Below, in pieces: positions 9,921-28,270 of a stretch of DNA of 59,809 bases. Where the stretch lies: positions 1-59,809 of the IMG/VR virus record IMGVR_UViG_3300032227_000277; one strand, given 5' to 3'. A program made the position numbers and the translations under genes. Position 1 is the stretch's first letter; each line of letters begins with the position of its first letter. Origin of the DNA: a virus. Taxonomy: Duplodnaviria; Caudoviricetes. The notes under the pieces are model-generated. The model was not told the origin of the DNA, did no database searches, and worked only from the letters and a program-made list of their open reading frames with translations.

Positions 9921-10103
9921 TTACTGTAGGGCGGTTACGGTCGATCTGAGTTCCTGTATCAGCTTCCACGCCTCGTCGTGCTCGGACTCCGCGATTTGAA
10001 GTTTTCGCATGGTCACGTTGTGCGCCGAAACTTCAAAGTATAGGGCTACACTTGAGGCGAGGCATATGAGTGACAGAGTTAGTATTAGTAGGTTTGTTTT
10101 CAT
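9921..10103 (-). CDS. Small single-TM protein
   Basis: Hydrophobic N-terminus then short coiled coil; fills the gap between pol and primase. Confidence 0.65.
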   Translation of the reverse strand: MKTNLLILTLSLICLASSVALYFEVSAHNVTMRKLQIAESEHDEAWKLIQELRSTVTALQ

Positions 10104-10106
10104 TGA

Positions 10107-13100
10107 TTATCCTTTTACGATGACTCCATAGTCGAGAAGTGCTTGCCACCGCTCCTGCATACCTTCAGTAAGTTCGCGAGGGTATTCACCTGACCTAAAC
10201 CATTCTGGTTGAATCGCGGTGATGTCTTTACGCTTACTCATCTCACAGAGGTTTGGTCCGGTCTTTACGTCAGCTTCAAAGGGAACTGGTAGGCGTAGTG
10301 AAAACCAGTCCTCTAGCGGAGTGTTCTCCATGTAGAAGCGCAGGGCTGCGGCTGCTTCGTCAATCAGGTGCTCCTTAGCTTCAATGACGTTAGCATCGTG
10401 GATGAAGAGAAGCGCACGCATGTCTTCGTGGTTCGCATCCCGCATGAAGCGTGTCACGGCGATGATACCTAGATCAGATGCAAATCTCTGCACCGGAGAG
10501 TTGATGCCTTGTCGCGAACTCATTCCTACAATCATTTCATCGTCACTCTCGACGTTAGGCAAGCGACGGAGCGCACCGTGTAGCGAGCGGACAAACCCGT
10601 GTTCGGACAGGAACTCACGCATCGCCTCGTGCCACCTCTTTAGGCGGGGATACTTTCGGAAGAACAACTCCCGCATCTCCATTGACTCATCGTCAGTGAA
10701 GTTAAGCTTGTAGTCAGTGCGAGCATAGATTTTGAACTTTCTCCATCCCATGCCATAGAGGAAGCCGAAGTTGACTGCCTTGGCGCACTGCCGCTTGTAT
10801 TCGAAATACTCTGAGACGGTGACGCTCCTGCGCTTTTCAGTGGATAGGTTTTTCAAGTAACCTTCGGAGCCGGGGCAGGAAGCCACGTTGTCTACTAGCA
10901 AGGACTCATCAGATGACCCTTCCTTGAATCGTTCATCCGTTACGCCCATGATAGCGGCTGCGGTGGCACTGTGGATGTCGCCGCCCTCCTGATAGATGCG
11001 AATCATCTCGCGCTCGTTAGCCATGCACGCAGCAACGCGAAGCTCGGCCTGACTCAAGTCCACCTCAGCGAATTTGAATCCGTCACTCGGAATGAAGATG
11101 CGTCTGTATGCCTTGGCAAGTTCCCCGCGATTGGGGAGATTCTGTCCGTTCGGATCAGAGTTGTGGTGGAAAATCCCACACGCGGCATAGGAGTGGTCGT
11201 CTTCTACTTCGATGTCATATACCGGATAGCTTCCGACAACGACAATCCCCTCAATCGTGACTCCTCGGGGGTGTGCCGATACCGTTGATGAATCGCAACA
11301 TGCCCTACCTTGGTGGTCAACGCTAAATTGTCCGGCTGGTTGTTCTCCTTGTCTCCGTCGATGTGGTGGATCGTCAACCCCGAGGGCAATTCCGCCACAG
11401 GTATCCCAAGAAGCTCCGCCATCACAATGCGGTGAACAAACTGACGCTTCCCGCGAACTACCCGAGTCAGATACCCGTAGCCGTCCTTGCACTCCCCCTT
11501 GTGATTCTTCGGAACCTTTCCAAGCATCGGGTTTTTCTCCCCGCGCTTCGACTCGGAATACTTCACCGCTTTGAGCCTCGCCAACTCGTCCGGTTCGATG
11601 CAGTCCGCCAAAATAGCGATTACTGTATGATGAGTCACCCCGCAGACCTCGGCGACTTGCGCCATCGTCTTCAAAGTGCTGCGATAGGTTTCCACTACCT
11701 TGCGGCGGATACGCGGACATGAAAAGTGTTTTTTGCAGACTGACATGTTGGATCATACTCCACTGCTCAGAAAAAGTAAATAGTCTATGCTGAAAAGTTG
11801 AGCGCAAAACTTCCCCATTTGAGAGGTAGCTGTCCACCATCGTCTGAACGGGTTTGACGAAGGTGTTCACCACCCGCTTCCAACGCCGCTTATGGGTCCA
11901 AACCAATTCACCAACCTTTATGTCTGCGATACGCTTCTTACCTTCGTAAGTGTCGATCAGAACATCGGCGTGTAAGCAAGAAGCGGCTCTTCCTGTGACT
12001 GTTCTGTGCAACCAGAACGAAGGGAAAATGTGCGGGTCATTGATGTCCTTGATGTATTGCCAGAAACCAGACGGTTCTATGATCTGACGACGCTCTACCT
12101 TGCCATAGGCATCAATCACGATGTCGCCCTTGTTTCCACTTGCGTGCATCACTAGGCTATCTGTCCCAAGCTCTTCCAACTTGGCTTGTATCTGAGGGTA
12201 TGGCGTTCTCCTGCGACCACCCTTGAGTTTCGGCAACTCAATACCGAAATGATCTAGTGCGTCAGTGACAACCTTTGGAAAGCCTCCAGACTTCAAGCGT
12301 TCTACGGCTGTGACTTCTACCCTGCCACGCTCGCCCACATAGGTAGAACGCATCTTGCTGACCTTCTTGTATTGAATCAGGTCTTGAACCAACTCAACGT
12401 GTTCGAAGTAGGGGAGATGATCTTTCGCGCTGGTAGAAATCTTTCCGCTCGCAGTCTTTAGGACAGGGATAAGTGGCTTGCCACCTTTGGTCACCACCTT
12501 ACCGTCCTTGACCTTCACGCCGTAGTCCTCACCGAAAAGTAGTTCTGCTAGGAAGTCTGGGCTATCGAAGGAGACCTTCTTTCCGCTATTGGTCCATGCA
12601 CGCAGCAACTCTGGTGGGCATTGCTCTAGCATTCTGGACTGTAGCTCTGCGGCTGCTTCTGCGAGAGTCACCCCAAAGTCTGAGAGAGCGGTCGTGTCGA
12701 TCCGAACGCCTCTACGCTCCATCTCAACGAACGTGCGTAGGGCTGGCATCTGGACTTTTGTAAAGGTATCCCACTGTCTTGAATCCTTCTTGCCTTCGCG
12801 AATTAGAACTGCTGCGAGGCGATAGCATACGTCCGTGTCACCACCCGCATATAGCAGGAAAGGCTCATGCTTGACTTCGTGCATACGACTCTTGTCTGTC
12901 ATCGCGTTGAACTCATCGGCGTAACCAGCGTATTGCGGCAACCACCGACGAACGCAGTCATCCAGATTCTTGGTCTGCATGTTCTCGTCTACTAGGAAGG
13001 CGAGTTGAATTGTGTCGGCATACCAGTTAGCGATCTCGATGCCTAGTGTTCGCATCACATGCGTGTCATACTTCAAGTTGTGACCGACCACATGAGTCGC

Positions 13101-13952
13101 TGGATTATCAAGGATGCACTTGAGTTGGTTGATCAGCTTACGTCGAAGCCTTGACGTTAGCCTCGTTGACTGTCTGCTCCTTGCGGACATGAGTGATTCG
13201 TCGTTCCACCACTCGATGTCTAGCGGAACCACCAGTGACTTGCCCTTGCTCGGGGTGATCGCAGCCGTAAGCACTCGGAATCCCGGTTTACGAAACTCAA
13301 GTCCGACAGTTTCCGTATCGAAGGCGATCTGAGTAGGTGGGTTGTCTATGAGTTCTTGCAGGTCAAGACACCACTCGTAGTCGTTGCCCTTAGCCTCGGC
13401 CCGATACTCATCAACATTCCACTCATGCTCACTCAGCGACTGTAGTTGGAGGAAGTCTGTGTTGTAGATGTCGCGTCTAGCTGGAAAGCGGAGGACTTCT
13501 CGCGGTGAAAGTAGTGGTAGCAGGTTGAACCCCTCCATGCGTTGGATAGTGCCGCGAACCTTGGTAATCGGCGTAGCCTCCCCAAGAACTTGTCGAAGGG
13601 ACCATCGACCCAACGTAACGACTATCCCCGGCTGCTTTGCATCAAGCAAGTTGTTGAACTCACTGAGGAACTCGTCGCGATGAGTAGTCAGGTGGGAGGC
13701 TACCACTGCATCGCTGAGGTCTTTCAACTCGGCGTCTGCTTGTATGGGTGGGCATGGGTTGATGAACGCGAAGTCTTCGATCTCAAACCCGCACGCTCTT
13801 GCTTCACGCATGAACACTTCCCCTTCCGGCGAAGACATCACCATGTCCGCATCGAAGACTTCATCGCATTGAATATCGGTAACGACCAAAACGCGCACGT
13901 TTCGACCTACTTGGATATTCAGATTGTCACTGTTTTCTTTTTTCATTTGCAC
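10107..13952 (-). CDS. polA: Family A DNA polymerase with N-terminal UDG-like domain, 3'-5' exonuclease and an intein
   Basis: FDTETVG, GHNLKYD, YAGGD; TGRAAS|SDPNGQNLP; DLSQAELR; RQCAKAVNFGFLYG; IHDA; true start may be ATG 13946. Confidence 0.95.
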   Translation of the reverse strand: MQMKKENSDNLNIQVGRNVRVLVVTDIQCDEVFDADMVMSSPEGEVFMREARACGFEIEDFAFINPCPPIQADAELKDLSDAVVASHLTTHRDEFLSEFNNLLDAKQPGIVVTLGRWSLRQVLGEATPITKVRGTIQRMEGFNLLPLLSPREVLRFPARRDIYNTDFLQLQSLSEHEWNVDEYRAEAKGNDYEWCLDLQELIDNPPTQIAFDTETVGLEFRKPGFRVLTAAITPSKGKSLVVPLDIEWWNDESLMSARSRQSTRLTSRLRRKLINQLKCILDNPATHVVGHNLKYDTHVMRTLGIEIANWYADTIQLAFLVDENMQTKNLDDCVRRWLPQYAGYADEFNAMTDKSRMHEVKHEPFLLYAGGDTDVCYRLAAVLIREGKKDSRQWDTFTKVQMPALRTFVEMERRGVRIDTTALSDFGVTLAEAAAELQSRMLEQCPPELLRAWTNSGKKVSFDSPDFLAELLFGEDYGVKVKDGKVVTKGGKPLIPVLKTASGKISTSAKDHLPYFEHVELVQDLIQYKKVSKMRSTYVGERGRVEVTAVERLKSGGFPKVVTDALDHFGIELPKLKGGRRRTPYPQIQAKLEELGTDSLVMHASGNKGDIVIDAYGKVERRQIIEPSGFWQYIKDINDPHIFPSFWLHRTVTGRAASCLHADVLIDTYEGKKRIADIKVGELVWTHKRRWKRVVNTFVKPVQTMVDSYLSNGEVLRSTFQHRLFTFSEQWSMIQHVSLQKTLFMSAYPPQGSGNLSQHFEDDGASRRGLRGDSSYSNRYFGGLHRTGRVGEAQSGEVFRVEARGEKPDAWKGSEESQGGVQGRLRVSDSGSSREASVCSPHCDGGASWDTCGGIALGVDDPPHRRRQGEQPAGQFSVDHQGRACCDSSTVSAHPRGVTIEGIVVVGSYPVYDIEVEDDHSYAACGIFHHNSDPNGQNLPNRGELAKAYRRIFIPSDGFKFAEVDLSQAELRVAACMANEREMIRIYQEGGDIHSATAAAIMGVTDERFKEGSSDESLLVDNVASCPGSEGYLKNLSTEKRRSVTVSEYFEYKRQCAKAVNFGFLYGMGWRKFKIYARTDYKLNFTDDESMEMRELFFRKYPRLKRWHEAMREFLSEHGFVRSLHGALRRLPNVESDDEMIVGMSSRQGINSPVQRFASDLGIIAVTRFMRDANHEDMRALLFIHDANVIEAKEHLIDEAAAALRFYMENTPLEDWFSLRLPVPFEADVKTGPNLCEMSKRKDITAIQPEWFRSGEYPRELTEGMQERWQALLDYGVIVKG
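11160..11978 (-). mobile_element. Intein (273 aa) in PolA
   Basis: Block A CLHADVLIDT..IADIKVGELV; block B STFQH; block F VYDIEVEDDHSY; block G HHN followed by Ser+1; removal restores TGRAASSDPNGQNLP. Confidence 0.93.
11204..11746 (-). CDS. HNH homing endonuclease nested in the +1 frame of the intein
   Basis: HTH N-terminus, GEKNPMLGK, HRIVMAELLG...IHHIDGDKENNQPDNL...H...H; GGAG 11 nt upstream of ATG. Confidence 0.88.
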   Translation of the reverse strand: MSVCKKHFSCPRIRRKVVETYRSTLKTMAQVAEVCGVTHHTVIAILADCIEPDELARLKAVKYSESKRGEKNPMLGKVPKNHKGECKDGYGYLTRVVRGKRQFVHRIVMAELLGIPVAELPSGLTIHHIDGDKENNQPDNLALTTKVGHVAIHQRYRHTPEESRLRGLSLSEAIRYMTSK

Positions 13953-15784: not shown

Positions 15785-15922
15785 TTATTCAAAGATCCAC
15801 ATGACAAGTTTGATCGCGACTGCCACTGCTGAAACAGCAACGCTGGTCACCATCACCATTACGAAGCACCCGCATCCGGCTGCGCCAAGTAGTTCATCGT
15901 TTGATCTATCTTCTTTTCTCAT
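15785..15922 (-). CDS. 45-aa membrane peptide (not in ORF track)
   Basis: MRKEDRSNDELLGAAGCGCFVMVMVTSVAVSAVAVAIKLVMWIFE; fills the gap exactly. Confidence 0.65.
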   Translation of the reverse strand: MRKEDRSNDELLGAAGCGCFVMVMVTSVAVSAVAVAIKLVMWIFE

Positions 15923-19697: not shown

Positions 19698-21353
19698 TTA
19701 TTGACCGATGCGGCGTCTGCGAACAGCTTGAACTGCGGAGCGTGGCTCAACCAACTCCTCAGATTCCTCCGAGTGTGAAGAGGCGAGTCGAGCGTTGTTC
19801 TTCGCCCACTCACTCATGCGAGCGAAGTCCTCTGGGAATGCTTCTGCGAGCGGTCGCATCTCCCCAAGCATCTCAGCAATGAGCTTGCCCGTGACTTCGA
19901 CCTTGCGGACGAAGGCGACCTTAACCGCTTCCTTGACCGCAGCCTCAAGCTCGGCTGAGACATAGCCCTTGGATGCGCGAACGGCAACGTCGATGTCCTT
20001 GACCTTTCGGACGTTCTGCTTGCGCTTGCGGAGGTGGATACGAAGGATAGCTTCACGCTCCTCCTTGTTCGGAGGCATCACCGCAAAGACTTCATCGAGA
20101 CGACCCTTGCGAAGCAATTCCGGCGGGAGAGAATCCGTGCGGTTTGCGGTGTAGATCGGAAAGATCGGAGCCTTGGTTTCCTGCATGAAGGTCAGGATAG
20201 CCCCGAGAACACGCTTGCTCACACCGGAGTCACCTCCTCCTTGGTGCGATCCACCAAGGGACTTGTCGATCTCATCGAAGAGGACAGTCACGCGACCCAT
20301 CGCTTCCAGTTGCTTGAGAGCGGAGCGAACCCGTGACTCAGACTGACCCACCAGCGAACCGAAACACTTGCTGACATCGAACTTGACCAGAGGCTGTCCG
20401 AGGCGTGAGGCGATAGCCTTGCCGATCAGCGTCTTGCCAGTGCCGGGAGGACCAACTGCCGCGATCCCTGCTGGAGCGTCAACGCCGAACGCACGAGCGT
20501 CCTCCGAGAAGGCACAAGCGGCATTGTCGATCCACTCCTTGAGTTGATCGAGTCCACCCACCTCACTCATGTCAACGGGTTCCATGAGTTCCAAGACTTC
20601 CGACTGCTTGACCACTTCGGTCTTTGCGTCGAGGACGGTTCCGTTGAACTTGTCGAACGGAATGGAGTCTATCGAATCCTCTGGCGACTTGTTCTCAACG
20701 ATTGCGCGGGAGAAGGCGAGTTCCGCCTCCATTTGTGTGAGACCACCAGCCGCCGCAGAGATCGTCTCACGCTCGCCTCTTGTGTAGAGTTCCGGCACGG
20801 CGTGACCTTCTGGGACTGAGCTACCGACGATATACTGAAGGAGATCAGACATCTCTTCGATGGAGGGTAGGTCGAAGTCCACCGTGGGAATGTCGTGAGT
20901 GAGTTCGTCAGGAAGATTGACATGCTCTGGAACGATCACGACCATCCGCATCTTCTTGCTCATAGTTGGGAAGACCCTAACATACTGGCGAAGCAGTTCC
21001 ACCATCGCGGGTGCTTTTTCGAGCCAAGGGTGGATAGCGTGCATCACGAAGAAGCCGGGAGCTTGCCAGCCCTCTGGCTCCCATCCACCGTCCACGTTCA
21101 TTAGCCACTTCATCGCGGCAAGTGGATCGAGGGTTTTCTGCGCGTGCGGCTTCGCACCGGGGGCATCCGATGGGCGTGAGATACGCCAGCCGTTGACTGA
21201 GTCCCACTGACCGAAAGGAATCGCCTCAGCAAAGGCCAATTCCTTGATTGCATCCATTGCGCGATAAGGTTCGCGGGTGCGGGTGAACATAACTCCGCAC
21301 CCAGACTTGCTGAGGATGCTGAGTTCCGTCTTGTATTTATCGTTGGTGTTCAT
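19698..21353 (-). CDS. Ycf46-like AAA+ ATPase
   Basis: VGGLDQLKEW, GPPGTGKT, SLVGQSESRVR, FDEIDK, TANR..LPPELLRKGRLDEVF; degenerate N-terminal AAA domain. Confidence 0.92.
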   Translation of the reverse strand: MNTNDKYKTELSILSKSGCGVMFTRTREPYRAMDAIKELAFAEAIPFGQWDSVNGWRISRPSDAPGAKPHAQKTLDPLAAMKWLMNVDGGWEPEGWQAPGFFVMHAIHPWLEKAPAMVELLRQYVRVFPTMSKKMRMVVIVPEHVNLPDELTHDIPTVDFDLPSIEEMSDLLQYIVGSSVPEGHAVPELYTRGERETISAAAGGLTQMEAELAFSRAIVENKSPEDSIDSIPFDKFNGTVLDAKTEVVKQSEVLELMEPVDMSEVGGLDQLKEWIDNAACAFSEDARAFGVDAPAGIAAVGPPGTGKTLIGKAIASRLGQPLVKFDVSKCFGSLVGQSESRVRSALKQLEAMGRVTVLFDEIDKSLGGSHQGGGDSGVSKRVLGAILTFMQETKAPIFPIYTANRTDSLPPELLRKGRLDEVFAVMPPNKEEREAILRIHLRKRKQNVRKVKDIDVAVRASKGYVSAELEAAVKEAVKVAFVRKVEVTGKLIAEMLGEMRPLAEAFPEDFARMSEWAKNNARLASSHSEESEELVEPRSAVQAVRRRRIGQ

Positions 21354-21383: not shown

Positions 21384-21411
21384 ACTTTAGCTCGCCTTTC
21401 TTTCTTTGCAA
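21384..21411 (-). promoter_or_regulatory. Promoter TTGCAA-N16-TAAAGT
   Basis: Same class as 1723-1750. Confidence 0.7.
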
Positions 21412-21430
21412 GCTCTTTTATTCAAAAGTT

Positions 21431-21445
21431 TTGCACGGCGTGCAA
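21431..21445. repeat. Dispersed palindrome copy 9
   Basis: TTGCACGGCGTGCAA. Confidence 0.9.
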
Positions 21446-21446
21446 A

Positions 21447-21767
21447 TCAGGAGACTGGTCGGGTCCGCGAGCGGAACTTCAGCCTTGGGGGACGAGGTGC
21501 GTCCACGATCTCGATCAGACCGTGACTGGGAAGACTGTGATGCCGTCTGGACTTGACGCTGTGCCAGCGACACTCCACTTCCCGTCCCTCACGTTCGGCT
21601 CGCTCCAGTCGCTTCGCGACATCGTTCCACAAGGACGCCCGATTCTCTCCTGCTGCGAACTTCGCCCAGTATCGTGCTGACTCGATGTCAACGATGACTA
21701 CTGAGGGAGGCTGATACGACTGGACATCCGTGGGCTTGGGGAGAGGCTTAGGCAATCGGGTTCTCAT
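21447..21767 (-). CDS. Hypothetical basic protein
   Basis: Probable ATG at 21767, 8 nt below a -10 box. Confidence 0.6.
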   Translation of the reverse strand: MRTRLPKPLPKPTDVQSYQPPSVVIVDIESARYWAKFAAGENRASLWNDVAKRLERAEREGREVECRWHSVKSRRHHSLPSHGLIEIVDAPRPPRLKFRSRTRPVS

Positions 21768-21775
21768 GGACCCGA

Positions 21776-21803
21776 AGTCTAAATCGCCTTTTTTTCTTTG
21801 CAA
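21776..21803 (-). promoter_or_regulatory. Promoter TTGCAA-N16-TAGACT
   Basis: Same class as 1723-1750. Confidence 0.7.
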
Positions 21804-21809
21804 GCGGTT

Positions 21810-22409
21810 TTATCCGCTGACCTGCATACCCCCGGTTTCAGACTCGCCCTCTAAGTCCGTCGTGTAGTCAAACTCAGGAAGCACGGGGACCGGACCATCT
21901 CGGTGGGAGGACGACCCTGCGCGATTGGTGTTCATGCCGGAATCAAAGTTACCGCTTCGGTGAATTGCGGGAAGGTTGATTCCTGTCATATACTTACCAT
22001 CTCGACTTACCATCGCAGCCGCTCGTATCTCACGAACCTCGCCAGAGGATGTCACGATACGGAAGATGTCCTGATACCCGCCACGATCCTCGATAGCTTT
22101 TAGGATTCTGGCATTCACTCGATCCCGGTCCTCGGGATGAATAATTGCCTCAAATGCTCCGTGGTTCGGATTCCACTCCCCCTTCACTCTACCAAAGAGG
22201 ATGAACATCTGGTCGTCCCAAAAGATTTCGTTCTCATCCAAGTTCCAATACCACCTACCTGCGTCCGCAGCCACAAGCGCACTCTGAAACTTCTCTCGCT
22301 CAATAGTGTAAGCGTGTCGTTCCCACATATACAGTGGGATGCTGACATACCCTAAAACTACCAAGAGCATATTCAAAGTCTTGGATATAGTGAACCTACA
22401 TGCTTTCAT
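21810..22409 (-). CDS. Membrane-anchored stand-alone PAS-domain protein
   Basis: One TM then GRWYWN...WDDQMFILFG...IIHPEDRDRV...FRIVTSSGEVREI (PAS_3 pattern). Confidence 0.85.
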   Translation of the reverse strand: MKACRFTISKTLNMLLVVLGYVSIPLYMWERHAYTIEREKFQSALVAADAGRWYWNLDENEIFWDDQMFILFGRVKGEWNPNHGAFEAIIHPEDRDRVNARILKAIEDRGGYQDIFRIVTSSGEVREIRAAAMVSRDGKYMTGINLPAIHRSGNFDSGMNTNRAGSSSHRDGPVPVLPEFDYTTDLEGESETGGMQVSG

Positions 22410-22759
22410 CGTTTTGACAGGAATCGTTTTACCAAATTACTGATGGCTATGCCAACCAACGCTAGTGTATCAAATGCCTTGTATCCTGCAAAGATAGATA
22501 CTCCAAGAAGGAAGTAGGAAAACCCGTAGTGCTGAACTAGCAGGAAGGTAAGTCCAGCAGACACCAGTGCGCCAGCCATCAGATACGCGGCGACGACACG
22601 CACGGTCAATGCTTTGGACTCGTTCCCTAAAACAGATGCGAGTGCGCTGAGTAGGCCCAGCATGGCTGCGCCAGCGATGTATGCTACGACTTTTACGTCA
22701 GCGGATAATGGATTGATCGGCTCCATCCCTCGTATAGTCGCAGACATCCTCCGCCTCAC
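22406..22759 (-). CDS. Putative holin
   Basis: About 3 TM segments, basic C-terminus, ATGA overlap with endolysin. Confidence 0.7.
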   Translation of the reverse strand: MRRRMSATIRGMEPINPLSADVKVVAYIAGAAMLGLLSALASVLGNESKALTVRVVAAYLMAGALVSAGLTFLLVQHYGFSYFLLGVSIFAGYKAFDTLALVGIAISNLVKRFLSKR

Positions 22760-23715
22760 CCTTTAGCCGCCTTGATCTTAGCGATGTCAGCCGAGCACAC
22801 TGCGCGGAACTCTTTCATGGAAAGGCTGTCGCCATTCAGATTGAGCGCACCACCGGGGTCTGTCTTCCTCTTCGGGCTGACCTCGTCATGGCCCAAAACT
22901 CGGTCAACGGAAAACACATCGGGGTTGTTGAGGTAAAGCCAAGCAACCAACCGACGAAGTGCGTTCATCTGGAGAATCGAATACAAGTGATAGTGACCCG
23001 CCGCGATGTTGTCGCGACCACTCACCGTAATCACCTCCTCGTGTGGAATGCGATTCTTAGGGTCGTTCTTTCCGTTGTCCCACCAAGGGTAGTAGTGACC
23101 CGCGTTGACCCGAAGATTGCCAGCGGCTTGAAGCTCTACGCCAGCAAAGTCATCAGAGACGTAGCCCTTCACCGAAGGGTGGGTGGAGTTCCCGGCATGG
23201 TAGCCGTGGTAGTTGAGTGGATCACTCTGACCAAGCCCACCCGCCTTGTCGATCATTAGATAGAGCATCCCGCTCGTCCGCATGAAGTCCATGCCAGCCT
23301 TCAAGCCATTCTGGTGACCTGCGGTCCAGTGGACGATGAGACCAGATGGATACTTGCTAGGATACTCACCACGCTTCGGGCCGGAAGGGAATCGCTCTGC
23401 CCACGGAATCCACAGTTCTTTCTTTCCGAAGGAGTATTGAGAGGGGTCGTGAAGAGAACTGGTCGAGACACTAACACTTTCGGGGACCGGAACCACCTTG
23501 ACCGGGGATTCGTCAACGGGCTTCAGTTGCTCACCGATGAGTTGCCTACGTTCGATGTCGAGAACCCCGGTAAGTAGATCGGACAGTGCTTGCCGTTCAG
23601 TGTCGGTCAGTCCCTTATAGTAGGTGAAGCCGGAATCGGACTTCTGCGCCAAATACCACAGTTGGGTAAAGATGGCGGAACGGTCGTGCTCTACAATAGT
23701 GTTTTGTGCCTCCAT
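22756..23715 (-). CDS. Endolysin, N-acetylmuramoyl-L-alanine amidase (Amidase_2)
   Basis: LIVHWTAG, YHAG, GVEL, LGHDEVSPKRKTDPG. Confidence 0.9.
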   Translation of the reverse strand: MEAQNTIVEHDRSAIFTQLWYLAQKSDSGFTYYKGLTDTERQALSDLLTGVLDIERRQLIGEQLKPVDESPVKVVPVPESVSVSTSSLHDPSQYSFGKKELWIPWAERFPSGPKRGEYPSKYPSGLIVHWTAGHQNGLKAGMDFMRTSGMLYLMIDKAGGLGQSDPLNYHGYHAGNSTHPSVKGYVSDDFAGVELQAAGNLRVNAGHYYPWWDNGKNDPKNRIPHEEVITVSGRDNIAAGHYHLYSILQMNALRRLVAWLYLNNPDVFSVDRVLGHDEVSPKRKTDPGGALNLNGDSLSMKEFRAVCSADIAKIKAAKG

Positions 23716-23783
23716 GCTGCCACATTAACATACGGAGCAGATTTGTCAGTCACATATGTGTGAAACTACGATGATTACCGCCG

Positions 23784-24218
23784 CTATTCGTAGGTCATAG
23801 CCTCCGTGAACCAGTCGTCTACATCATTTTCGTCAATGAGTAGTTGCTGCCGGATAGCCTCGACTTTCGGGGAGGTTCGCCGCACGGTGGGGGCATACTC
23901 AAACCACTCGGTCATAATATCCCGTTCTGTCTGGTTCGGGATAGCCGCGATAGCTGCAAGAACGGTAGCCTTGAGTCCTTTACGGATCAGCATCTCACCA
24001 AACTGGGCGCGGGTGAGAATCAGAGTCGCCCGTGTGTTTGCGAGGGTCGTCGCCGCTAGGTGTGCAGTCTGGGCGATCTCAGCGGCAGGTCGGGCAGCTT
24101 CGATCTCTTCCATCGTAGGGATAGCTCCACCGTCTCCTGCGGTGATCAGATCACCGTCTACGGTCCAACCTCCACGGTTCGGAAAACCAAAAACAAGAAT
24201 TTCGGGGATCGAGATCAT
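23784..24218 (-). CDS. Tail-fibre-associated protein
   Basis: Directly downstream of fibre; PTMEEIEAA and WFEYAPTVRRTSP...VDDWF resemble fibre-chaperone-type proteins. Confidence 0.55.
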   Translation of the reverse strand: MISIPEILVFGFPNRGGWTVDGDLITAGDGGAIPTMEEIEAARPAAEIAQTAHLAATTLANTRATLILTRAQFGEMLIRKGLKATVLAAIAAIPNQTERDIMTEWFEYAPTVRRTSPKVEAIRQQLLIDENDVDDWFTEAMTYE

Positions 24219-24220
24219 GG

Positions 24221-27200
24221 TTACGGGATTCGGTGGACTCGCATAGTCAATCCTTTAAGAAAAGTAATGCTTGTGCCAGAATTTTCGGAGGCTGCGCGAA
24301 ATTGAACGGTGTTTGGATTGCTCCCGTTTATAAGGGTTAAGGTTGCCCGAAACGGGAGGGTATCGGTCGAGCCATCTGCTTGGGTCAACGTAGTATTGAA
24401 CGCAGTCGCTGCTGCCACTGTTCGTCCGGTATTAACGGCATTCCAGTGCTCAAGAGTGTAACGGACATGAGTCGGGCTAGAGGGTCCGGTAAACGCGATT
24501 TGAAGACCAGACCCAGCAGCGCCGCCGACTCGGAAACCAACGATCTCGATAAGTATTTTCTCGTTTATCGCGACAGAGCAAGAAAGACCAGTGACGTTGC
24601 TGATGGTTCCGGTGTTATCAAAAAAGTCGTCCGTACGCATGTAATGCTCGGTGATAGCCGATCCACCTCCACCAGAAGCAACTTCCCACGCAGCACCTCC
24701 TGCCCCGTCTGCGGTAAGAACGTAGTTGTCCGCAGCAGCACCGGAACCGAAGTCCGCTGCATCAATCGAGCTTAGGGCAATTTGCCCCGTGCCGCCGTTC
24801 GCGACAGGGAGCGTCCCGGTAACGTGCGCGGAAGCTGCCGTCAGGCTGACTTGGTTGCGCGTGATAACTTGCCCAGAAATGGTCAGGTATGCTGGAGTCC
24901 CCCCGAGGGTAACGTCTCCAGAGTTCGTTCCAGAAAGAGTTCCGGTAGCCCCGTCAGCAATCGTGATACCACCAGTCTGGATCAGCTTTCCGGTCGTCCC
25001 GTCGAACCGAGCGATTGCGTTGTCCACTACGCTTGATGGCCCAAAGACATCCGCAGTGAAATAATTCGGGCGAACAAATATGGTCCCGTTATTAGCGTGC
25101 GCGCTGACCACCGCCATCACCTCAACAATGGGATTAGGCGCGGAAGGTTTGACACTAGTCAGTTTTACCGAGTTTGTCCCGGCATAGATAATCGTCTCAT
25201 CTGCCCAAGTTTGGCTGTAATTGCCTCCGTTGGTCTGGATGCCTCTGACTTTTCCAAAGGCAACCACAGTGCCTTCATGCCCTTGAATAAACTCCTCGCC
25301 TGTTATGCCCATGAACAAAGTCGCTGGGCCGATGCCGTCCCAAGGCTTGATCCGTAGCTTACCACTGTTCCCAGTTGTCCCGGCGAACATAACCGGAGTG
25401 CCTTTTGCGATTGTCGCTCCGGTATTGTTCTGAGCGTGGTAGATCAGGTGCTGCCCGGTGTGCATCGTGAACCCGTGTAGCTGGAGATCGAGAGTCTCTT
25501 CTCCTACGTTCCAGATCAGGTCGCCAACGGTTGTAGCAACGCCTGTAGGAGTCGTGTCGAACTGAATCTTTTCGACTGCTCCAAGAGTATCTCCTGCGTG
25601 CGTGTGTGCTGTAGGTGTCCTAGCGTCCGTGAGCCGTGCATCGTCTGTAGCAACGTAGTCCGTTCCTGCTGTTGCAGCAGAGACCACACTGCCGTTCCCT
25701 TTAAGGAGACCCGTGATGTCAGTGGCGGTAGTCGAAGTCACCTCTACTTCGGTCAGCGGGGTAACATCTACCCACACTGCGTTGTCTTCAGCATTGTTGG
25801 CACATTCAAACGTAGTGCCATCATCCTTGACGAACCTAGAGCCAACTAAGTAACCGACGGTTTCATCATCGTATTGGGTTGGGTTATTCGTGAGGCCGTA
25901 TTGGACAGAGCGAATATTATTGCTCTGATCCAAGATAAAAAGCGACCCGTTCCGCCAACGGTGAACATAATCAATCGAGCAGACCAGATCGAGACCGTAG
26001 TCATTGGGTGTCTGGCGGATTCTAGCGTAGTTGTCGAAGGCGATCTCCGCACCGTTGTCCATGATACCACCAGCAAGCGGGAGGTAATCACCTCCAGCCC
26101 CTCCGCCAGCAGACCATTCTTCTTCCGTGAGAACCGGATCGTCAGTCGTTGTATCAAGATAGGATTGGTAGGCGGTTTTACCCGTATCCCCAGTGTCGCC
26201 CTTTGAGACCAGCAACTCCCAGTTATATCCCGGCGGTGCGCCCCCAACCGTCCAACCCCCCGTAGCAGGTAGCCAGTAGAGACTGCCCTGATGCGTCACG
26301 GCATCATAGAGACTGTAGTTCGCGTAACCGTCCCATGCCCCTCGGTAGTTGTAGGGCATTGGTCCGGTATCTCCGGTATCACCCTTTGGTCCAGCGTCAC
26401 CAGTTGTGCCTTTAGGCAGGTAAAGATCCCATCCCCCAGAAGAGGTAGGATCACCTAGTTCCCCGCTCCCCGTGGCGACATAGAGATTGTTATCGCTACC
26501 CTTGACCACCGCACCGGGGACGTATCCGTTGCCGGGGATATAGGCGTTCAACCAGTAAAAGCCGGGACCAGTGCCGCCAGTATCGCCAGTGTCTCCTTTT
26601 GGACCGGGATCTCCGTTATTTCCGGTCGGACCTTTAAGAGCGAATGGCCCGTAGCTTGCCAAATCCGTGTAGAAGGTAAGGTTGCCACTACCGTCGTCTA
26701 CAACATTGGTAATCGGAGTGGCGTTCGTGCCGTCCGTGCCATCTTGCCCATTTGAACCGGGAGGGCCGGGATCGCCTTGCGCCCCTTGTCCCCCCGCTGG
26801 ACCTTTCAGTGCAAATGGCCCGTAGCTTGAGCTTGACGTGTAGATCGTAAGATTCCCGTTTCCATCGTCGCTGATGTTGGTAATTGGCGTAGCGTTCTCT
26901 CCATCTGAGCCATTAGAACCGGAATCACCCTTCAAATAGAATGGACCATAAGAACTACTTGTCGTGTAGATCGTCAAGTTGCCATTACCATCATTTGAGA
27001 TACTGGTAATTGGCGTTGCCTCTGGACCAGCGGGACCGGGGTCTCCCTGTGGTCCTTGTGATCCATCTGAACCAGCTGGTCCTTTGAGAGCGAATGGCCC
27101 GTAGCTTGAGTTCTGTGTGGAGATCGTCAGATTTCCACCACCGTCGTCGGAGATGATAGTGATAGGAGTCGCCTCTGCACCAGCGGGACCGGGGTCTCCC

Positions 27201-27547
27201 TGTAGTCCTTGTGAACCGGGATCGCCTTGAGGTCCAGCGGGTCCGAGTAACGCGAACGGACCATAGTCCGTGGTCGATGTGCTGATGGTCAAGTTGCCAT
27301 CACCGTCGTCTGTAATAGCGGTAATCGGAGTGGCGTTCGTGCCGGGAGCACCGGGAGCGCCGGGAGGACCAGCAGGTCCGTCAAGAGACGCAACCCACTG
27401 AGCTTCCGTCAGTATGGGATTATCCGCCGTCGTATCTCGGTAGGACTGGTAGGCAGACTTTCCTCTGCCCGTTTCCATGACAATCTCTCGCCCTTGAACA
27501 GTGAGCGTGATCAACCGTCCTTGAACAGTGAGAGTCGTGTTAGGCAT
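24221..27547 (-). CDS. Collagen-repeat tail fibre / receptor-binding protein
   Basis: G-X-Y runs alternating with a repeated ATPIT..DDG.GNLT..YGPFALKG module; YLPLAGG; DARLTDARTPTAHTH. Confidence 0.85.
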   Translation of the reverse strand: MPNTTLTVQGRLITLTVQGREIVMETGRGKSAYQSYRDTTADNPILTEAQWVASLDGPAGPPGAPGAPGTNATPITAITDDGDGNLTISTSTTDYGPFALLGPAGPQGDPGSQGLQGDPGPAGAEATPITIISDDGGGNLTISTQNSSYGPFALKGPAGSDGSQGPQGDPGPAGPEATPITSISNDGNGNLTIYTTSSSYGPFYLKGDSGSNGSDGENATPITNISDDGNGNLTIYTSSSSYGPFALKGPAGGQGAQGDPGPPGSNGQDGTDGTNATPITNVVDDGSGNLTFYTDLASYGPFALKGPTGNNGDPGPKGDTGDTGGTGPGFYWLNAYIPGNGYVPGAVVKGSDNNLYVATGSGELGDPTSSGGWDLYLPKGTTGDAGPKGDTGDTGPMPYNYRGAWDGYANYSLYDAVTHQGSLYWLPATGGWTVGGAPPGYNWELLVSKGDTGDTGKTAYQSYLDTTTDDPVLTEEEWSAGGGAGGDYLPLAGGIMDNGAEIAFDNYARIRQTPNDYGLDLVCSIDYVHRWRNGSLFILDQSNNIRSVQYGLTNNPTQYDDETVGYLVGSRFVKDDGTTFECANNAEDNAVWVDVTPLTEVEVTSTTATDITGLLKGNGSVVSAATAGTDYVATDDARLTDARTPTAHTHAGDTLGAVEKIQFDTTPTGVATTVGDLIWNVGEETLDLQLHGFTMHTGQHLIYHAQNNTGATIAKGTPVMFAGTTGNSGKLRIKPWDGIGPATLFMGITGEEFIQGHEGTVVAFGKVRGIQTNGGNYSQTWADETIIYAGTNSVKLTSVKPSAPNPIVEVMAVVSAHANNGTIFVRPNYFTADVFGPSSVVDNAIARFDGTTGKLIQTGGITIADGATGTLSGTNSGDVTLGGTPAYLTISGQVITRNQVSLTAASAHVTGTLPVANGGTGQIALSSIDAADFGSGAAADNYVLTADGAGGAAWEVASGGGGSAITEHYMRTDDFFDNTGTISNVTGLSCSVAINEKILIEIVGFRVGGAAGSGLQIAFTGPSSPTHVRYTLEHWNAVNTGRTVAAATAFNTTLTQADGSTDTLPFRATLTLINGSNPNTVQFRAASENSGTSITFLKGLTMRVHRIP
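26630..27340 (-). repeat. Five about 50-aa repeat units in the tail fibre
   Basis: ATPITxIxDDGxGNLTIxTxxxSYGPFALKG + collagen triplets, five times. Confidence 0.85.
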
Positions 27548-27877: not shown

Positions 27878-28270
27878 TTAGTTACGATTGAACAGTTCGG
27901 TCAGTTTGCGAAGTGCGGATTGCGCATTCGGACCAACCCAAGCATCAAGCGGACCTTGATACACACCCTGATCCTTGAGAATCGTAAGGGCTGCGTTGTT
28001 GTCCTTCGCGATAGCTCCCTTGACGAAGAAGTCGAGGATCATAACGATCATCGGAGCGACAGCCGCAACGAATCCAGCCTCACTGAGCACTGCGCCGGGA
28101 GGAAGGTTGAACAGAACGCCAAGGGCGATCTTCACGACCTCGGGAGCACCGGGGATGTAGGACGCGAGCATCGAGAAGAGGATGGCTGCGACCGTGGTGG
28201 AAATCTTCTTGAGAAATTTATCACCGAAAAAGAGACTGATGAATCGAGACTTGAGCTTTTCCATACGCAA
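27878..28270 (-). CDS. Membrane protein with C-terminal peptidoglycan-binding-like motif
   Basis: Hydrophobic helices; LKDQGVYQGPLDAWVGPNAQSAL resembles PG_binding_1. Confidence 0.55.
   Translation of the reverse strand: MRMEKLKSRFISLFFGDKFLKKISTTVAAILFSMLASYIPGAPEVVKIALGVLFNLPPGAVLSEAGFVAAVAPMIVMILDFFVKGAIAKDNNAALTILKDQGVYQGPLDAWVGPNAQSALRKLTELFNRN

Follow-up and report, generated by a model that had tools for sequence, protein, structure and literature searches.

The locus described here raises the question of why a phage would encode, directly after a candidate endolysin and a small membrane protein, a membrane-anchored PAS domain with no output domain attached. The stretch of DNA that was analysed, hereafter the window, is the entire IMG/VR virus record IMGVR_UViG_3300032227_000277 (59,809 bases, linear, CheckV completeness 68%), and the phage is uncultured and siphovirus-like. 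In the initial annotation, positions 21810 to 23715 had been described as a lysis cassette in which an amidase, a holin and a PAS protein are encoded in succession, with the PAS protein proposed as a ligand-responsive regulator of lysis timing that acts on the holin. Three consecutive minus-strand open reading frames (ORFs) of this kind are present, encoding an amidase (22756..23715), a small protein with three predicted transmembrane (TM) helices (the 3-TM protein, 22406..22747) and a TM-PAS protein (21810..22409). The main new result, as judged from sequence, is that the 3-TM and TM-PAS genes form a conserved pair, which we read as a single two-gene module. For its interpretation as a holin with a co-translated, antiholin-like PAS-domain timing regulator we give a probability of roughly 0.45.

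In the TM-PAS protein (199 aa), a membrane helix at the N-terminus is followed by a single PAS_3 domain and a disordered tail. Pfam PAS_3 (PF08447) is matched at residues 62-137 (E 1.2e-11; score 45.2 bits, curated cut-off 25.6), and this is the only Pfam family in all 18 homologues, which are 169-200 aa in length and all metagenomic. The AlphaFold2 (AF2) model calculated from the 19 family sequences (mean predicted local distance difference test score, pLDDT, 72.7) exhibits a PAS fold at residues ~48-147 (21969..22268, minus strand), with strands at 51-56, 61-64, 111-119, 125-134 and 140-147 and helices between them. Ahead of the fold, one continuous helix spans residues 2-47 and runs into the PAS N-cap, and within it lies the membrane helix (residues ~12-29; 22323..22376, minus strand), which is detected as a hydrophobic window in 19 of 19 members. 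The remainder, residues 148-199 (21813..21968, minus strand), is a variable tail of predicted disorder (pLDDT below 50 for 150-199). Column conservation follows the same division, with values of 0.64 for the membrane helix, 0.70 for the PAS core and 0.35 for the poorly conserved tail, and the conserved W-x-W, WD, HPxD and Y...FR positions that we take to be typical of PAS_3 are present in the alignment. Between the window and its close relative L004, the PAS gene differs at 29 synonymous and 12 non-synonymous positions, a ratio of non-synonymous to synonymous substitution rates (dN/dS) of ~0.10 that shows purifying selection and, with neighbours similarly constrained, identifies these as genes rather than chance ORFs. 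In the same comparison dS is 0.27 for the PAS gene, 0.08 for the amidase, 0.03 for the holin-like gene and 0.10 for the ATPase gene that follows the unit, which hints at faster turnover or recombination of the PAS gene.

A resemblance to the PAS domains of histidine kinases had been noted at the outset, together with the lack of a kinase or GGDEF output, and both statements are borne out. Foldseek returned 444 matches in the PDB at E <= 0.001, headed by the sensor-kinase PAS domains 3mr0, 6ph4 (Brucella LOV-HK) and 8js5 (FixL) at E 5e-9 to 1e-5, and the longer proteins closest to it, 25-40% identical across the domain, are multi-PAS kinases and GGDEF/EAL proteins. Within the TM-PAS protein itself only PAS families are matched in Pfam (E <= 1), the NCBIfam matches are local and fall on the PAS parts of the models, and beyond the PAS fold there is only the ~50-residue disordered tail, with no HisKA/HATPase_c, GGDEF or EAL domain. 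The protein thus shares the PF08447 family and the fold of 3mr0, LOV-HK PAS and FixL PAS with multi-PAS sensor kinases and GGDEF/EAL proteins, but differs from these proteins in having a single domain, no kinase, GGDEF, EAL or DNA-binding output, one N-terminal helix as anchor, a phage genome as its source and a 3-TM partner. BFVD also contains automatically labelled PAS-only proteins of uncultured phages that are similarly short (143-205 aa); four of these entries from tailed phages (A0A8D9CBR8, A0A6J5NY05, A0A6J5QVN9 and A0A6J5KZZ3; 165-205 aa) align structurally to the model over 129-168 columns and may be further stand-alone phage PAS proteins.

The strongest regularity at the locus is the association of the two membrane protein genes. 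In six of the six retrieved loci that carry a short TM-PAS gene (the window, L004, L002, L011, L012 and L013/L026), the 3-TM gene lies directly upstream of it. The PAS protein of L004 is 93% identical to that of the window and the one of L002 65%. More distant are L011 and L012, which are identical to each other in the pair stretch and belong to a 121-kb record and to a 200-kb, 98%-complete IMG/VR record (holin-like protein 49%, PAS ~30%), and L013/L026, an 11.5-kb contig of a proteobacterial metagenome-assembled genome (~50% and ~36%). Loci with 49-52% identity in the holin-like protein have different flanking genes. L011, L012 and L013 were found by the alignment of the holin-like protein, and L002 and L004 by PAS scans (the L002 record appeared in the holin scan as well); all three of the holin-found loci had an adjoining PAS gene that was missed by the PAS search itself. 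A further nine pairs are suggested by the longest-contig sizes, since 9 of the 18 PAS homologues share the exact value with a 3-TM homologue (43505, 50406, 73454, 12860, 90883, 1149, 1255, 1087 and 1188 bp); where this length is below 1.3 kb, in four cases, the small size requires the two genes to be neighbours. Over 13 pairs the two families also co-diverge (Mantel r 0.74, with none of 5000 permutations as high), which shows, at the level of sequence divergence, long co-inheritance and does not imply contact.

A whole-library PAS-profile search gave 102025 matches at E <= 0.001, mostly multi-PAS proteins, and short full-length forms account for 5 of the 150 matches listed (P0012, P0132, P0018, P0180 and P0201). 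L003 (a 1353-aa ORF), L005 and L031 (a 528-aa PAS-PAS-kinase followed by a response regulator), which had come up through PAS patterns, are ordinary multi-domain kinases and were left out of the pairing count. 3-TM homologues also occur on contigs of 51, 62, 150, 161, 193 and 215 kb with no PAS homologue among the matches listed; these contigs are not evidence of PAS absence, because the word-based search likewise failed to pick up the PAS genes at L011 and L013, which are divergent. Even if the lysis interpretation fails, the strict pairing defines a new two-gene membrane module of environmental phages with no described function.

The two genes are also linked at their junction. Overlaps of the ATGA type had been claimed at both boundaries of the unit, and one of the two is retained. 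At 22406-22409 the plus strand reads TCAT, the complement of a coding ATGA in which the 3-TM stop and the TM-PAS start overlap, and the same overlap is found in L002, L004 and L011/L012 (five of six pair loci), with a 6-nt gap in L026. At 22756-22759, by contrast, the plus strand reads TCAC, which gives GTGA, and the GTG at 22759 that opens the 3-TM ORF is not conserved, as L004 uses an ATG past the amidase stop without any overlap and L002 another ATG. In the window the 3-TM gene likely starts at the ATG at 22747 (113 aa), which is 8 nt past the amidase stop and has a GAGG 6 nt upstream; from the ATG at 22726 the product would be 106 aa. Because the GTG at the amidase junction is not kept in relatives, only the coupling of the 3-TM gene to the PAS gene is solid. 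Under the timing-regulator interpretation, re-initiation at the holin stop would lead to the PAS protein being made in fixed proportion to the holin.

The kinase-like nature of the domain also admits the improbable alternative that the TM-PAS protein is a decoy, pairing with PAS domains in the sensor kinases or cyclic-di-GMP enzymes of the host and rewiring its signalling late in infection, with the linkage to the 3-TM gene reflecting no more than shared membrane targeting. The 25-40% identity to repeats of multi-PAS kinases is consistent with such a role, as are a local match to a diguanylate-cyclase model (E 2.2e-17), the common homo- and heterodimerisation of PAS domains (HIF2a-ARNT heterodimers are in the Foldseek list) and the occurrence of short PAS-only proteins in other uncultured phages. 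However, a decoy explains neither why the TM-PAS gene stays strictly next to the 3-TM gene with ATGA coupling nor why the membrane helix is conserved, and expression from the end of a late operon would presumably leave little time for rewiring.

The AF2 model of the 106-aa form of the 3-TM protein (pLDDT 80.5) contains helices at residues 6-33, 42-67 and 71-104. Acidic residues mark the N-terminus and basic residues the first loop, the second loop is very short, and the chain ends in the basic tail KRFLSKR, a pattern that in the model fits an N-out/C-in topology like that of class I holins. The small size (106-113 aa), the three predicted helices and the basic C-terminus are traits of the holin class. 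The 28 homologues (106-150 aa) are free of any Pfam domain, and the motif YGFSYFLLGVSIFAGYKAFD is near-invariant across the family; in the 29-sequence alignment (A2, the window's copy plus the 28 homologues), 20 columns are invariant, including Y67, G68, S70, L73, G75 and the run F79-D86 (FAGYKAFD). The nearest clusters in the ESM Atlas comprise phage proteins of ~105 aa in which 10-92% of members carry Phage_holin_3_1, 3_2 or 3_3 (neighbour scores 0.89-0.90, 192-200 shared features), a match that by the tool's own calibration is a lead and not proof. Of the earlier designation of 22406..22759 as a holin, the small membrane protein with three AF2 helices is confirmed, and no curated Pfam or PHROG holin family is matched. 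From position, topology and the language-model lead together, we infer a holin role.

Several results weigh against the holin assignment. None of the 29 sequences in alignment A2 matches a holin family in Pfam (E <= 0.1) or PHROGs (E <= 0.01), and NCBIfam gives no match of any kind for the 3-TM protein; the G001/G002 copy does reach E 0.0017 on PF04550, which speaks for a holin, but its 19.2 bits remain below the cut-off of 25. In an hhalign comparison with lambda S, the 31 aligned columns, which cover the TM3 end and the tail, reach a probability of only 31.8%. Moreover, a 130-aa minus-strand ORF at 27878-28270, with two hydrophobic segments, upstream of the tail-fibre gene and kept in L004, could be the true holin instead.

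Lambda S105/S107 (Phage_holin_3_1, holin superfamily III) is among the nearest known systems. Both proteins have a length of ~105 aa, three helices and a basic C-terminal tail, with the local resemblance at the TM3 end and tail; no significant profile match exists between them, and the lambda holin is regulated by a longer version of its own product, where the unit here has a PAS protein from a second gene. A pair of in-frame Met codons separated by 7-8 codons, with a single intervening K/R, is seen in the window (22724-22759), L004 (5660-5690) and L002 (4660-4690), with the N-termini MSATIRGM-, MMSATIREM- and MQTVPKPM-, respectively. This spacing recalls the dual-start motif of S107/S105, although the second Met is missing in most other members of the 3-TM family.

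The genomic setting of the unit in the window points to lysis. The amidase (319 aa) is the endolysin candidate, with Pfam Amidase_2 (PF01510) at residues 122-288 (E 4.9e-8; score 33.8 bits, cut-off 26), weak matches to the endolysin families phrog_1493 and phrog_9611, a local NCBIfam match to AmpD and no family match for its N-terminal ~115 aa. The hydrophobicity scan finds neither a signal nor a TM segment in it, and for that reason the enzyme needs a holin. By PHROG matches the gene order of the window is ParB, small and large terminase, methyltransferases, portal, protease, capsid, tape measure and collagen-like tail fibre (24221-27547), after which the unit follows, and then an AAA ATPase (19698-21353; phrog_8638, E 3e-146) and a replication module of helicases, polymerase, primase, UvsX-like recombinase and RNase H. 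The minus strand carries nearly all long ORFs of the window, and the unit with its structural genes before and replication genes after lies on this one strand. In relatives defined by the ATPase, the slot before it is occupied in Rhizobium phage L338C by a hydrolase with a peptidoglycan-binding domain, an N-terminal-TM protein and a lipobox protein; in L009 by two membrane proteins, a Peptidase_M15_4 protein, an N-terminal-TM protein and a lipobox protein; and in Aeromonas phage HJ05 by two membrane proteins, an Amidase_2/PG_binding_1 protein and an N-terminal-TM protein. As these relatives carry an endolysin and small membrane proteins there, the slot is a lysis cassette in this phage group.

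Outside the lineage of the window this setting is lost in part. Of the expected conservation of the PAS gene beside lysis genes, the half that concerns the holin-like gene is borne out, in six of six loci and probably in the nine further pairs, but a recognisable endolysin next to the pair is confined to the lineage of the window (three loci: the window, L004 and L002). In G001/G002 the pair lies between a 901-aa InPase-domain protein of virion type and proline-rich uncharacterised proteins, with no recognisable endolysin flanking it; the 200-kb record, although 98% complete, contains no PF01510 (Amidase_2), PF00959 (Phage_lysozyme) or PF01464 (SLT), and the one peptidoglycan-binding protein detected in this phage, G002 (PG_binding_1), is 22 kb from the pair. 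In L026 the pair sits before an M10/astacin-like secreted protein, the contig breaks off on its upstream side, and a PG_binding_1/CHAP protein follows 7.5 kb downstream. These contexts count against a link to lysis, as does the fact that the independent contexts of the pair amount to three lineages only, and adjacency and co-divergence would be expected from simple co-inheritance as well. Large phages often scatter their lysis genes, so that the distance in G002 is weak evidence. The InPase-domain protein that precedes the pair in G002 (L016 12345-15050; PF18823, E 3e-46) is of a kind found in large virion proteins, and ~1.4 kb further a 106-aa protein (L016 18155-18475) with an N-terminal TM segment and a coiled coil has an i-spanin-like look.

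Such contexts speak for another alternative, the most probable of the three considered, that the 3-TM/TM-PAS pair is a self-contained membrane module for sensing, exclusion or host manipulation that merely happens to stand at the end of the late operon here. We consider this unlikely, though far from negligible. It accounts for the travel of the pair as a unit into the different neighbourhoods of G001/G002 and L026, for the failure to match any holin family and for a conservation of the 3-TM family (20 invariant columns in 29 sequences) that is unusual for a holin. It does not account for the position of the pair directly after a signal-less endolysin in the lineage of the window, where the sole other holin candidate (the two-TM ORF at 27878-28270) is ~4 kb upstream of the endolysin, nor for the use of this slot for lysis genes in relatives, nor for the holin-family clusters that are the ESM Atlas neighbours.

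On the timing-regulator interpretation, the late operon would end in a lysis unit with four products: a cytoplasmic endolysin of the Amidase_2 type, a 3-TM holin like those of class I, a PAS protein that crosses the membrane once, and a small basic protein. Within the inner membrane, the conserved membrane and juxtamembrane helix of the PAS protein would bring it together with the holin; a change in the state of the PAS domain would alter the packing of this helix against the holin helices and with it the time at which the holin triggers, and the state of the regulator would depend on what the PAS domain senses. The effect could be a delay or an acceleration. In sensor kinases the same helix-PAS geometry transmits the PAS state along the helix, and we propose helix packing as the mechanism because of this geometry and because the helix, whose conservation comes close to that of the PAS core, runs into the PAS N-cap. 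In its full form, with a membrane-anchored, output-less PAS sensor that acts directly on a class-I-like holin by helix-helix contact, a moment of lysis that is set by a small molecule, redox or envelope cue, and a portable module common to siphophages of 60 kb and phages of 200 kb, the proposal is possible and is put forward tentatively.

The topology of the TM-PAS protein is predicted from charges around the membrane helix. Among the 19 members, 1-3 K/R and almost no acidic residues precede the helix and ~3 K/R together with ~3 D/E follow it, which favours an N-in orientation with a periplasmic PAS domain. This prediction is at odds with the usual cytoplasmic location of PAS_3 domains, and no ligand or cofactor signature was identified; both points count against the timing-regulator interpretation. 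For a LOV- or haem-type cofactor site, the alignment speaks neither for nor against. No sequence relationship to a known antiholin family emerged, as the PAS protein matched no PHROG at E <= 0.1 and only PAS families in Pfam.

Comparison with phage T4 helps to define what is proposed. T4 holin T spans the membrane once and has a large domain in the periplasm, whereas the protein here has three TM helices and short loops, and the T4 holin and antiholin genes are not adjacent, whereas the two genes here are translationally coupled. T4 RI is not known to have a PAS fold. It also has no sequence relationship to the TM-PAS protein, which matches no PHROG family. In the proposed logic the two are alike, as RI is a precedent for a membrane-tethered sensing antiholin (PMC11413866 and PMC8385771), in which an N-terminal hydrophobic segment leads to the envelope, a globular domain senses a condition and the holin is held back. 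If the topology indicated by the flanking charges holds, the PAS domain would resemble RI further in being periplasmic.

Position and anchoring are also reminiscent of spanins, and the TM-PAS protein might replace an inner-membrane spanin or serve another step in outer-membrane disruption, an alternative that we regard as very improbable. Like lambda Rz/Rz1, it is encoded after endolysin and holin, with an N-terminal anchor and a bulk that is possibly periplasmic, and its flank charges are compatible with the type II topology of an i-spanin; L338C and L009, moreover, carry N-terminal-TM and lipobox proteins between endolysin and ATPase that the window lacks. Unlike Rz/Rz1, the soluble part is a globular PAS fold and not a coiled coil, and there is no lipoprotein partner. 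The latter agrees with the initial annotation, which had seen no recognisable spanin pair: in a six-frame lipobox scan of the window, no coding-strand candidate for an outer-membrane lipoprotein was found outside other genes, a negative that holds for a record 68% complete, and spanins may lie in the missing part. Alternative-frame ORFs within the PAS gene lack a signal peptide or lipobox, and an o-spanin embedded there was rejected. As the modelled soluble part is globular and a lipoprotein partner is missing, an i-spanin identity is unlikely. The absence of spanins is not rare, as none was found in 91 of 677 phages of Gram-negative hosts in Table 1 of Kongari et al. 2018 (PMC6139136).

Lysis timing sets phage burst size and fitness, and its known regulators are alternative holin forms or a few idiosyncratic antiholins (T4 RI, RIII and P1 LydB). 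What would be new here is a holin-associated regulator, its function putative, with a new sensory fold. If the link between PAS domain and holin is true, it would be the first generic ligand-tunable sensor fold in lysis timing, phages may be able to sense chemical or redox conditions in the final stage of infection, and engineers would gain from the pair a compact lysis switch that is possibly under ligand control. A full-text literature search gave no paper linking a PAS domain to a phage lysis gene among the matches listed, and those with 'PAS domain' beside a lysis term appear incidental by their titles (PMC6090650 and PMC9496106).

The last gene of the unit (21447..21767, minus strand) encodes a 106-aa basic protein that is conserved in L002 and L004 only (dN/dS 0.15) and is absent after the 3-TM/PAS pair in G002 and L026. 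It contains no membrane segment and no signal sequence, which speaks further against a spanin partner at this position, and has only sub-threshold family matches (NCBIfam far below threshold). A terminator-like hairpin with a T-run (21430..21446, minus strand, from a pattern scan) stands directly after this gene and before the AAA ATPase; as the number of terminator-like sites in the region is not above that of shuffles, the hairpin is a lead only. PADLOC gave no match for the PAS, 3-TM or 106-aa protein.

In a collection of 50,697 phage records, blastn with 21400-24300 and tblastn with the PAS protein found no match, and the amidase one weak match. By the AAA ATPase the closest named phages are Rhizobium phage L338C (47% identity), Aeromonas phage HJ05 (41%) and Pseudomonas PaMx31/SM1-like phages (34%), and the host is likely proteobacterial. 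The ATPase (minus strand) is of a family common to Rhizobium, Aeromonas, Pseudomonas, Rhodobacter and Mycobacterium phages, and also matches the PADLOC IetA models (E 7e-17). In the tail fibre (minus strand, 1108 aa), collagen-like G-x-x runs alternate with a repeat unit of ~50 aa (ATPIT.ISDDGNGNLTI.T...YGPFALKG). Residues 657-737 of the DNA polymerase (10107-13952, minus strand, 1281 aa) match ribonucleotide reductase PHROGs and not polymerase, and this stretch could be an intein or other insertion. Finally, two tiny minus-strand ORFs in the replication module, at 9921-10103 (60 aa) and 15785-15922 (45 aa), each encode one strong hydrophobic segment.

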